Source: a virus
Reading direction: 5' to 3' (one strand)
IMG/VR virus record: IMGVR_UViG_3300029955_000077
DNA: 37,227 nt
The notes under the pieces are model-generated. The model saw nothing but the letters and a program-made list of their open reading frames with translations. It was not told the origin of the DNA and ran no database searches. Of this stretch, positions 7,499-8,136 are shown piece by piece. Position 1 is the stretch's first letter. Every line of letters begins with the position of its first letter. Made by a program: the position numbers and the translations under genes.

Positions 7499-7676
7499 TG
7501 AAGAATTTATAGCCTGTATCCGAGCTTCAAAACTCACCATCAGTGAATTGGCTAACGCTGTGAGTGTTAGTCAGCCGACGATAAGGCGTTGGAGATCAGG
7601 TATGAACCTCCCGCATCAAGCAGTACGCGAGTCGATTTTAAAGTTTTTGAAAGCAGCTCTATCGGCAATTGGATAG
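7488..7676 (+). CDS. small HTH DNA-binding protein (AlpA/excisionase-like), paralog 2
   Basis: Motif VSQPTIRRWRSGMNLP. A tandem duplicate of the preceding gene that overlaps it by 11 nt. Confidence 0.55.
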   Translation: MITDEEFIACIRASKLTISELANAVSVSQPTIRRWRSGMNLPHQAVRESILKFLKAALSAIG

Positions 7677-7729
7677 TCATCCTCCCTCCGAAGGAGGTTT
7701 AAGTGTGGGTTCGAGTCCCACTGGAGCTA
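7655..7729 (+). tRNA. tRNA-Arg (anticodon CCG)
   Basis: Acceptor AGCTCTA/TGGAGCT, anticodon stem CCTCC/GGAGG with loop CTCCGAA, T-arm GTGGG-TTCGAGT-CCCAC, CCA encoded. The D-arm is atypical and shared with the tRNAs at 7866 and 8063. Confidence 0.55.
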
Positions 7730-7784
7730 CCAAGTTACGGGGAGAGATTGTAGACAAGCACAGGGTCACCAGATTTTAGATTTC

Positions 7785-7857
7785 GCTCGTGTAGCTTAAC
7801 TGGATAAAGCGCAGCCCTGCGAAGGCTGATTTTACGGTTCGAGTCCGTTCACGAGCA
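7785..7857 (+). tRNA. tRNA-Arg (anticodon GCG)
   Basis: Acceptor GCTCGTG/CACGAGC, D-arm GCTT-AACTGGATA-AAGC, anticodon stem CAGCC/GGCTG with loop CTGCGAA, CCA encoded. Confidence 0.65.
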
Positions 7858-7865
7858 CCAGATTT

Positions 7866-7939
7866 GGTTCCATCGGCAACTGGAGAGTCAACTGCGTTAC
7901 GAACGCGGATCAGTGTAGGTTCGAATCCTACTGGGACTA
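7866..7939 (+). tRNA. tRNA-Arg (anticodon ACG)
   Basis: Acceptor GGTTCCA/TGGGACT (wobble pairs), anticodon stem CTGCG/CGCGG with loop TTACGAA, T-arm GTAGG-TTCGAAT-CCTAC, CCA encoded. Confidence 0.55.
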
Positions 7940-8062
7940 CCAAGTTTAACTACGAACTTTGTTTGACTTTCGTATTAAGTAGTGCTGTGCCAATTGTCAT
8001 CGGAAAAGAACGGCGTCCCAACGCAATTGGTACTGGCTTGAATTTTTGGAAAAGTTTAACAC

Positions 8063-8136
8063 GCCTCCATCGGCAACTGGATAGTCAACATCGCTTCGAA
8101 CGATGATTAGTGTAAGATCGTACCTTACTGGGGGCA
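8063..8136 (+). tRNA. tRNA-Arg (anticodon UCG)
   Basis: Acceptor GCCTCCA/TGGGGGC, anticodon stem CATCG/CGATG with loop CTTCGAA, T-loop ATCGTAC (A at position 54), CCA encoded. Confidence 0.5.

Follow-up and report, generated by a model that had tools for sequence, protein, structure and literature searches.

A 37,227-nucleotide (nt) stretch of viral DNA (IMG/VR record IMGVR_UViG_3300029955_000077, here called the window) carries four consecutive transfer RNA (tRNA) genes on the + strand with the arginine anticodons CCG, GCG, ACG and UCG. By sequence and predicted fold the four are genuine tRNA-Arg genes, and they stand within a complement of at least 37 tRNA or tRNA-like genes of a large, apparently peat-soil phage. 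Three of them are built on a non-canonical body (the scaffold) that is conserved in a family of tRNA-Arg genes from other contigs; the first anticodon base, position 34, is switched on this body between related genomes; and equally broad anticodon coverage extends over other codon boxes of the genome. We hold it reasonably probable that the set belongs to a backup tRNA pool that depends neither on the host's tRNAs nor on host tRNA modification.

ARAGORN places tRNA-Arg(CCG) at 7655-7732, tRNA-Arg(GCG) at 7785-7860, tRNA-Arg(ACG) at 7866-7942 and tRNA-Arg(UCG) at 8063-8139, each with an encoded CCA end, and agrees in every isotype and anticodon with the first-pass annotation, which had described a tandem array of four such genes. 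The span given there, 7655-8136, is correct at its start, and its end lies 3 nt further, where the UCG gene with its encoded CCA reaches 8139. The anticodon loops read CUCCGAA (CCG), CUGCGAA (GCG), UUACGAA (ACG) and CUUCGAA (UCG), i.e. the claimed form xUNCGAA with N as C, G, A and U in turn. All four genes fold as a cloverleaf: the acceptor stem has 7 bp, the anticodon stem and the T-stem have 5 bp each, and the 7-nt anticodon loop carries U33 and, at 37, a purine. Arginyl-tRNA synthetase (ArgRS) recognises, by E. coli rules, A20 in the D-loop and A/G73 as identity elements. The four genes carry G18, G19, A20 (GGAUA/GGAGA), C35, G36 and discriminator A73, and an arginine anticodon (NCG or YCU) with C35 is present in these four as well as in a UCU gene further downstream.

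The unusual D-region TCGGCAA(C/T)TGGA(T/G)AGTCA, reported earlier for three of the four genes, matches exactly in the CCG, ACG and UCG genes, and the GCG gene has a canonical D-arm instead. The three scaffold genes have a D-stem of 3 bp (G-C, G-U, C-G), a 9-nt D-loop that keeps G18, G19 and A20, 2 nt between D and anticodon stems, and a variable loop of 6-7 nt (7 nt in the CCG gene). A canonical 4-bp D-stem, a single nt 26, a 5-nt variable loop and T54...A58 occur together only in the GCG gene, of which an identical copy is found on contig L055. The T-loop of the UCG gene, AUCGUAC, has A54 with U58, swapped from U54 with A58. With the general tRNA model of Rfam (RF00005, gathering score 29 bits) the GCG gene scores 62.2 bits, the CCG gene 38 bits and the ACG gene 32.8 bits, and the UCG gene has no match at E<=1. 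Of the tRNA software, ARAGORN thus confirms the anticodons, and the Rfam model is weak for CCG and ACG and silent for UCG.

Such scores invite the alternative that the redundancy is largely neutral: homing endonucleases and recombination would shuffle and duplicate tRNA cassettes, the UCG gene, a CCU-like element further downstream and perhaps the CCG gene would be decaying, and the CGN set would be a transient accident. The missing Rfam match of the UCG gene and the scores of ACG and CCG barely above threshold fit this picture, but all three stems are perfect or near-perfect in the four genes, their CCA is encoded, and the low scores are common to a whole covarying family. An alignment of 36 distinct scaffold sequences, collected by a D-motif search pattern, keeps 98.5% of its stem positions paired, with compensatory double changes in 16 of 20 stem pairs; none of 500 shuffles matches the observed values, and slid partners pair in 33-44%. 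The variable loop ends in AGU throughout the family, although this position lies outside the search pattern. Scaffold relatives on other contigs likewise score 31-38 bits, so the low scores of the CCG, ACG and UCG genes are a property of the scaffold, and the sequence evidence speaks against decay of these genes. The A54/U58 exchange, too, is a paired change that recurs across isotypes: T-loops of the form AUCGUNN are present in 25 of 399 array tRNAs (Lys, Ala, Gly, Gln, Leu, Ile, Asn and Arg), three of them in the window (8063-8139, 9112-9187 and 11718-11793) and 22 in other loci, and two window tRNA-Lys genes that carry it score 55 bits. A second T-loop variant, UCCGAAU, with C55 replacing U55, occurs in 16 of the 399.

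The scaffold is confined to arginine and, so far, to viral and metagenomic arrays. The exact D-motif occurs in IMG/VR in six matches, all of them tRNA-Arg genes within tRNA arrays, the longest of the contigs having 297 kb, and in JGI/ENA metagenomes 37 of 38 matches lie inside tRNA arrays. In the genomes of 185,579 bacterial and archaeal species (one each) it has 39 matches, none in a tRNA; these are taken as chance, since by a rough estimate some 70 would be expected (18-mer, two 2-fold positions, 596 Gb). On this count the idea that the exact scaffold is of cellular origin was rejected. Among the 399 array tRNAs a relaxed D-motif is exclusive to Arg in all 48 cases (ACG 18, UCU 16, UCG 12, GCG 1, CCG 1), and the CCG gene of the window is the sole CCG among them. 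The scaffold therefore appears, in the sequences known so far, as a tRNA-Arg body of viral and metagenomic arrays only. All that sensitive blastn of the ACG gene returns from deposited phage genomes are matches of about 79% to Otagovirus phages of Pseudomonas, in which the related gene has the anticodon UAG. The representative (L095 1489-1565) is Pseudomonas phage PE09, MN905160.1 29059-29135, with about 25 related Otagovirus records; it has a short variable loop and a D-region resembling the Arg scaffold (UAGGCCAACUGGUAGAGUCA), and is annotated as tRNA-Leu, yet the long arm that tRNA-Leu has in bacteria is missing. Possibly it descends from tRNA-Arg(UCG), with position 35 altered. On an unrelated metagenomic contig a tmRNA gene (L068 568-959, - strand, 78 bits) lies near a scaffold-type tRNA-Arg(UCU).

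The shared D-region had been read as duplication followed by anticodon diversification. A common scaffold with diversified anticodons is indeed present, but a recent local duplication is not borne out: the three window paralogues have only 60-69% mutual identity outside D-region and anticodon, and nearer kin (85-87%) exist elsewhere. A recent tandem duplication was rejected for that reason. The nearest relative of the ACG gene at 7866 is a tRNA-Arg(UCG) of contigs L081 and L082 (87% identical outside D-region and anticodon), and that of the UCG gene at 8063 is a tRNA-Arg(ACG) of contig L048 (85%). Window positions 7984-8144 align with L048 1232-1393 at 89.5% identity over 162 nt (blastn), and because 80 nt of upstream flank are homologous as well, window UCG and L048 ACG are positional orthologues. 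The spacer at 7984-8062 (+ strand) contains the 3' end of a probable HNH (homing) endonuclease open reading frame (ORF), which by alignment has lost its 5' part in the window and is intact in L048; it is probably the remnant of an endonuclease gene, with a CxxCH-type HNH motif as read by eye. Downstream of the window ACG gene, 46 nt are 97.8% identical to the sequence 3' of a canonical-type UCG gene of L048, and since these flanks match, different gene bodies fill the same slot in the two loci. An HNH endonuclease gene at 10431-10976 (+ strand; Pfam HNH_5 1.6e-14, HNH 1e-13) is embedded in the tRNA cluster, and its homologue precedes an Arg(CCU) gene in L081 and L082.

The window, L048, L081 and L082 have a common gene order: Trp, His, the Arg block, Asn, Gln, Asn, Lys ..., Arg CCU/UCU, Lys. 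Complete Arg blocks of the relatives hold A34, U34 and C34 species, and in L082, where the block is at the contig end, A34 and U34 are seen. The A34 and U34 species are both kept in every relative, even where the gene bodies carrying them are swapped, which suggests selection on the anticodon set and argues against neutral redundancy, whatever the HNH remnant in the spacer, the defective tRNA at 8961-9031 or the occurrence of all four CGN anticodons in just two sampled arrays (the window and L059) may say in its favour. We consider neutral redundancy quite unlikely. As far as sequences can tell, the cassettes of this locus turn over freely, and the wobble base is switched while the body that carries it is conserved.

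Two further arginine elements lie downstream in the same cluster. The tRNA-Arg(UCU) announced at 11632 is confirmed by ARAGORN at 11632-11706 (+ strand; 51.9 bits in Rfam), with a 4-bp D-stem and encoded CCA. A tRNA-like CCU element at 11075-11151 (+ strand) has the anticodon loop UUCCUAA and 36.6 bits in Rfam (gathering score 29), and is not called by ARAGORN. It had been described as a hairpin; the element is real, and it is more than a hairpin, with a perfect 7-bp acceptor stem, a 5-bp anticodon stem, a canonical T-arm and encoded ACCA. Its D-arm is missing (0 of 11 model positions), a lack that also suits the neutral alternative, and a 15-nt insertion follows 3' of the anticodon arm; folded alone, it forms the acceptor stem, an extended anticodon helix and the T-arm. 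None of the fetched related loci contains a homologue. L081 and L082 have a normal tRNA-Arg(CCU) 3' of the homologue of the window HNH gene, the place occupied in the window by the D-armless element. The proposal that every arginine anticodon is carried thus stands for the four CGN anticodons and UCU, and for CCU only if the D-armless element is functional.

The broad coverage is not peculiar to arginine. Contigs L085-L091, found by exact-protein look-ups, match the window with >99.9% identity and reach 10 kb beyond it in both directions, so that at least 37 tRNA or tRNA-like genes of the same genome are seen in about 57 kb, in three clusters. The upstream cluster (L089 6032-7856) contains Ser(GCU, GGA, CGA, UGA) and Leu(UAA). 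The downstream cluster (L085 13574-17382) contains 16 tRNAs: Val UAC/GAC, Ala UGC (twice)/GGC/CGC, Cys (twice), Asp (twice), Gly UCC/GCC (twice)/CCC and Glu CUC/UUC; together they serve practically every codon that starts with G (Val, Ala, Asp, Glu, Gly), and Cys in addition. Codon-table row or tRNA class seems to govern which genes stand in which cluster. In the four-codon boxes of Ser, Gly and Ala, G34, U34 and C34 species are each present, and in that of Val G34 and U34; Glu UUC/CUC and Lys UUU/CUU occur in the same genome. The Arg block follows the G34/U34/C34 rule of the other boxes and adds a bacterial-type A34 gene.

This bears on the suggestion of the first-pass annotation that the set is a counter-defence aimed at nucleases that cleave Arg tRNAs. 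Because exhaustive coverage is genome-wide (Ser, Gly, Ala), an Arg-specific explanation is unneeded; Ser, Gly, Ala, Glu and Lys are equally redundant in the same genome. In this alternative the host or a competitor would deploy an anticodon nuclease against arginine tRNAs, in the way that colicin D cleaves the four E. coli Arg isoacceptors, the phage would supply a resistant copy of each isoacceptor, and the D-arm and variable loop of the scaffold would confer the resistance. It draws on several observations: the scaffold is Arg-specific, viral or metagenomic only, and invariant in its non-canonical D-region and variable-loop AGU; genes for the RNA-repair-associated RlaP, a polynucleotide kinase-phosphatase (PNKP) fragment and the peptidyl-tRNA hydrolase PTH2 adjoin the array; phage tRNAs are known to defeat tRNA-cleaving defences (PMC10264068, PMC11464382, PMC11555353); and an Arg-specific tRNase has been described (Tomita et al. 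2000 as cited in PMC7824862). However, Ser, Gly, Ala, Glu and Lys are covered just as exhaustively, the loops CUNCGAA and UUACGAA are without unusual substitutions at colicin D-type cut sites in comparison with the E. coli loops, and the GCG gene is fully canonical. An arginine-directed defence appears improbable to us. A generic counter-defence function is plausible by analogy, because RlaP, the PNKP fragment and PTH2 are nearby.

Codon use was counted in 41 window ORFs (8,486 codons, about 44% GC). The phage uses all six Arg codons, with fractions of 0.25 for CGT, 0.19 for CGC, 0.18 for CGA, 0.19 for AGA, 0.11 for AGG and 0.08 for CGG. Pure codon-usage compensation, the classical hypothesis (reviewed in PMC10264068), would have the phage, at about 44% GC, supply tRNAs for those codons that it uses more than does its host, at about 58-60% GC. 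The contrast between phage AGA 0.19, CGT 0.25 and CGA 0.18 and two Acidobacteriota fragments of 58% GC (AGA 0.02-0.05, CGT 0.10-0.18, CGC 0.41; crude open-frame counts with unvalidated frames, on unrelated fragments that do not represent the host) agrees with it, and it could account for the UCU and ACG tRNAs. The same proxy does not fit CCG, GCG or Gln(CUG): CCG and GCG read CGG and CGC, for which a host rich in GC should have ample tRNA, and the window carries tRNA-Gln(CUG) although 70% of the phage's Gln codons are CAA, to which Lys(CUU) and Glu(CUC) may be added. Nor does selective supply predict that every anticodon is covered. The extreme compensation first put forward thus fits poorly alone, with all six codons at 8-25% and tRNAs provided for likely well-served codons too, and we regard it as unlikely. 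Compensation, neutral redundancy and an arginine-directed defence, in this order, all rank as weaker than a general backup pool.

Most bacteria read the CGN box with two tRNAs, ICG (with inosine, I, at position 34) and CCG, and Mollicutes without the deaminase TadA have moved to UCG and GCG species (PMC3711424). The view that the window goes beyond normal decoding needs is confirmed in that its CGN coverage exceeds this bacterial norm. GCG, UCG and CCG read the whole box without A-to-I editing, and the additional ACG would give redundancy whether or not a host deaminase accepts the phage tRNA.

An RNase P RNA gene (L085 15073-15456, + strand) lies about 3.4 kb past the right end of the window inside the downstream tRNA cluster, on a contig that is 99.96% identical to window 25548-37127. 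It is a full-length bacterial class A RNA (169 bits with Rfam RF00010, whose gathering score is 100) with a conserved P4 catalytic core and a divergent specificity-domain region. None of 50,697 deposited phage genomes contains a match to it, an Rfam scan of 13 related loci shows no other RNase P RNA, and the literature searched contains no report of a phage-encoded RNase P RNA. Encoded CCA and RNase P RNA suggest that tRNA maturation is partly self-supplied.

The backup pool may therefore be pictured in the following way. The complement holds nearly every anticodon of each codon box seen, as G34, U34 and C34 species, and for Arg an added bacterial-type A34 brings the CGN tRNAs to four. Point mutations switch the first anticodon base on the scaffold body, and related phages exchange gene cassettes, probably aided by the homing endonucleases embedded in the array. 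The array would be transcribed on the + strand and processed probably in part by the phage-encoded RNase P RNA, and ArgRS would charge the products through A20, C35 and G36/U36. Expression and charging of the scaffold tRNAs, and a selective benefit from them, are what the sequences lead us to expect. The result would be a complete Arg-decoding set that is independent of the host tRNA pool and of the host A34-to-I34 deaminase TadA, and phage translation could continue when host tRNAs are mismatched to phage codons, depleted or cleaved. A further-reaching idea, doubtful though conceivable, takes UCGGCAAYUGGAKAGUCA-anticodon arm-NNNAGU as a virus-restricted plug-in body, kept in many unrelated large phages, with the wobble base toggled among A, U, C and G, whose invariant D-arm/variable-loop core would make the tRNA orthogonal to a host process such as cleavage by an Arg-directed or elbow-recognising tRNase or dependence on TadA, and whose precursors would be matured by the phage's own RNase P RNA.

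Several points weigh against the backup pool as a reading. The D-region invariance of the scaffold family is partly a product of the search pattern, and the cellular genomes were scanned with the exact 18-mer only, so that bacterial near-variants could remain. The Rfam tRNA model does not detect the UCG gene, and the CCU element is without a D-arm; one or both may be inactive. The full CGN set, found in two sampled arrays only, is not strongly conserved. The sole host hint is the amino-acid permease of the window, the best named cellular homologues of which belong to Candidatus Angelobacter (Acidobacteriota), with 53-55% identity. No phage structural gene (capsid, terminase) is seen in the about 57 kb, and the assignment to a phage rests on PHROG matches and on the IMG/VR membership of relatives.

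The genome, which the first-pass annotation had taken for that of a phage, is nevertheless very probably that of a large phage, given its PHROG matches and the relationship of its helicase to one on a 332-kb IMG/VR contig, and probably that of a jumbo phage. All substantial window ORFs are on the + strand. The SNF2 helicase (phrog_62, 4.9e-75) is 72% identical to the one on the 332-kb contig and 49% to one on a 265-kb contig. Jumbo-phage tRNA arrays stand in viral genomes of more than 200 kb, and the longest contig with the window's exact protein cluster has 93.6 kb. A bacterial or plasmid L-array, suggested by the permease and the encoded CCA, was set aside as a first choice in view of the co-oriented genes, strong PHROG matches and IMG/VR relatives. 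Megablast of window 6800-12000 against the 50,697 deposited phage genomes gives no match, and a cultured relative is not available. The phage recurs in about 100 collection blocks, among them WOOD18 assemblies and JGI sample 3300031788; its population is nearly clonal across samples and hence without within-lineage covariation. Contig L055 (Ga0182031_1246979) is 97.7% identical to window 6165-8140. A detailed alignment of 660 nt shows only 1- or 2-base deletions as differences, which look like sequencing error and cause ARAGORN to miss the CCG gene there. L055 was therefore rejected as a variant strain and has no comparative value.

The window tRNA cluster (7017-11875, + strand) comprises 15 ARAGORN genes and the CCU element, all co-oriented: Trp, His, five Arg, two Asn, Gln, three Lys, Phe and one defective gene. 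CCA is encoded in 13 of the 15, including all five Arg genes; the Trp gene ends in CCU and the defective gene at 8961 has none. Tran et al. (2016, PMC4758250) define a tRNA array unit by a minimum of 20 tRNA genes that are packed at 2 or more per kb. The window cluster, 16 genes in 4.86 kb or 3.3 per kb, is dense enough but has fewer than 20 genes, and the three clusters reach 37 genes together, yet are separated by many kb of protein-coding genes. A promoter and terminator scan of 6600-12100 is not above shuffled expectation, with one good sigma-70-like site at 6685-6713. Two tandem paralogous small helix-turn-helix ORFs (7301-7676, + strand; 65 and 62 amino acids; HTH_3 1.5e-4, below the Pfam cutoff) precede the Arg block; 22 nt of the second are shared with the 5' end of tRNA-Arg(CCG), and both are called as genes in L089. 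ORF 9546-10361 has a single weak partial match in IMG/VR.

The cluster has further odd members. The tRNA-like gene at 8961-9031 (44.5 bits in Rfam) is probably a pseudogene: its anticodon loop, AUUAAC, has 6 nt, its acceptor stem is mispaired, and CCA is lacking. The tRNA-His(GUG) at 7120-7199 is called by ARAGORN and lies below the Rfam threshold; it has 80 nt, an 11-nt D-loop and an extra 5' G, and its homologue at L081 6370-6449 shows compensating changes. Long variable arms are in bacteria normally confined to Leu, Ser and Tyr tRNAs. Here, long class II-like arms are found on tRNAs with Asn(GUU), Gln(CUG), Arg(ACG) and Trp(CCA) anticodons, in the window (8377-8463, 8572-8660), in L048 (1914-2000, 2005-2089) and in L081 (4560-4645, 4809-4894, 5059-5143, 6488-6575). 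The long-arm helix of the Gln gene varies with compensation between relatives (GACCA/TGGTC, GAGC/GCTC, GCC/GGC).

Among the protein-coding genes, RlaP, PTH2 and the HAD phosphatase fragment of PNKP co-occur with the tRNA clusters. The RlaP-family nucleotidyltransferase (4441-5274, + strand; PF10127 2.4e-18, phrog_388 4.7e-46), a family associated with RNA repair (PMC7824862, PMC12776372), lies 1.7 kb upstream of the window cluster, and PTH2 is located upstream in the contigs extending the window. A short ORF at 703-981 (+ strand; Pfam PF25109 2.8e-10) corresponds to the C-terminal end (last third) of the PNKP phosphatase (HAD) domain; it is overlapped by ORF 257-751, which has no Pfam match, and the two may be a split or frameshifted PNKP gene. 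PHROG and Pfam scans of the region's ORFs detect no RNA ligase, ArgRS, CCA-adding enzyme or TadA. Other family matches in the window are two HNH endonucleases, a T4-type endonuclease VII, a Ku-like protein and a DNA methyltransferase (phrog_363, 1.5e-74). Between the PNKP fragment and RlaP, 1684-4164 encodes an 826-amino-acid protein with major-vault-protein shoulder and repeat domains (PF11978, 3.6e-26), unusual in a phage. Host-like auxiliary genes encode an APC-family amino-acid permease (12474-13790), an ADP-ribosylglycohydrolase (15738-16871) and an M24 peptidase of the methionine aminopeptidase type (16810-17604). The region 27000-29000, with a GC content of 0.52-0.54 against about 0.44 elsewhere, spans the DNA methyltransferase, endonuclease VII and the next ORF. 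It varies between otherwise identical genomes, because in L086 part of the segment is missing (split blastn match) and no endonuclease VII is called, and in L085 no DNA methyltransferase is called.

Why large phages carry dozens of tRNAs is debated, the candidates being compensation, replacement of a degraded pool, or escape from tRNA-cleaving defences. The locus offers a clean test case, with a complete CGN set partly on a conserved Arg-specific body and with A34 and U34 swapped between orthologues, and its RNA-repair neighbours and phage-borne RNase P RNA suggest a self-contained module of tRNA supply and maturation. If the scaffold is nuclease-resistant or TadA-independent, a tRNA feature outside the anticodon loop would be tied to anti-defence, and orthogonal tRNA parts would be possible; if not, the locus is one more well-documented jumbo-phage tRNA array. 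In the literature searched we found no description of an Arg scaffold with an invariant D-arm/variable-loop core, of A34/U34 switching between orthologous phage tRNA genes, of the co-occurrence of ACG and GCG, or of a D-armless CCU element.

By analogy, the locus belongs to a known class, the jumbo-phage tRNA complements paired with RNA-repair genes. As many as 67 tRNAs are known from a single huge-phage genome (Al-Shayeb et al. 2020, PMC7162821), and jumbo-phage tRNA arrays co-occur with RlaP, PTH2 and RNA ligases and have been read as counter-defence (Iyer et al. 2021, PMC7824862). Like these phages, the present genome has dozens of tRNA genes unlike cellular ones near RlaP and PTH2, relatives on contigs of 265-332 kb, and a proposed role against host shut-off or tRNA cleavage. 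Unlike the known complements, it has all four CGN anticodons with GCG beside ACG, three Arg genes on one Arg-specific non-canonical scaffold, and an RNase P RNA in the neighbouring cluster.

The tRNA set of phage T4 is far smaller and includes just one tRNA-Arg. The T4 tRNA region contains the SegB homing endonuclease (PMC2330249), and bacterial L-arrays have linked homing endonucleases as well (PMC8421152). Common to these and the window are co-oriented tRNA genes with embedded endonuclease genes and cassette turnover between relatives; in contrast, the endonucleases of the window are HNH and not GIY-YIG, and their homing activity is putative.

The tRNAs of phage T5 neutralise PARIS (tRNA-Lys) and retron Eco7 (tRNA-Tyr) (PMC11464382, PMC11555353), and for phage tRNAs an escape through anticodon-loop changes has been hypothesised (PMC10264068). 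As in T5, the phage's tRNA variants could replace nuclease-destroyed host tRNAs, and the window has the classic targets Lys (three genes), Asn (two) and His (one). Unlike T5 and the escape hypothesis, the Arg anticodon loops here are without visible escape substitutions, and it is the D-arm and variable loop that are distinctive. In Mollicutes (Yokobori et al. 2013, PMC3711424), as in the loci described here, a change of base 34 turns ACG into, or replaces it by, UCG and GCG, with TadA-free decoding; there, however, reductive replacement ends with one tRNA, whereas in this viral genome four species coexist.

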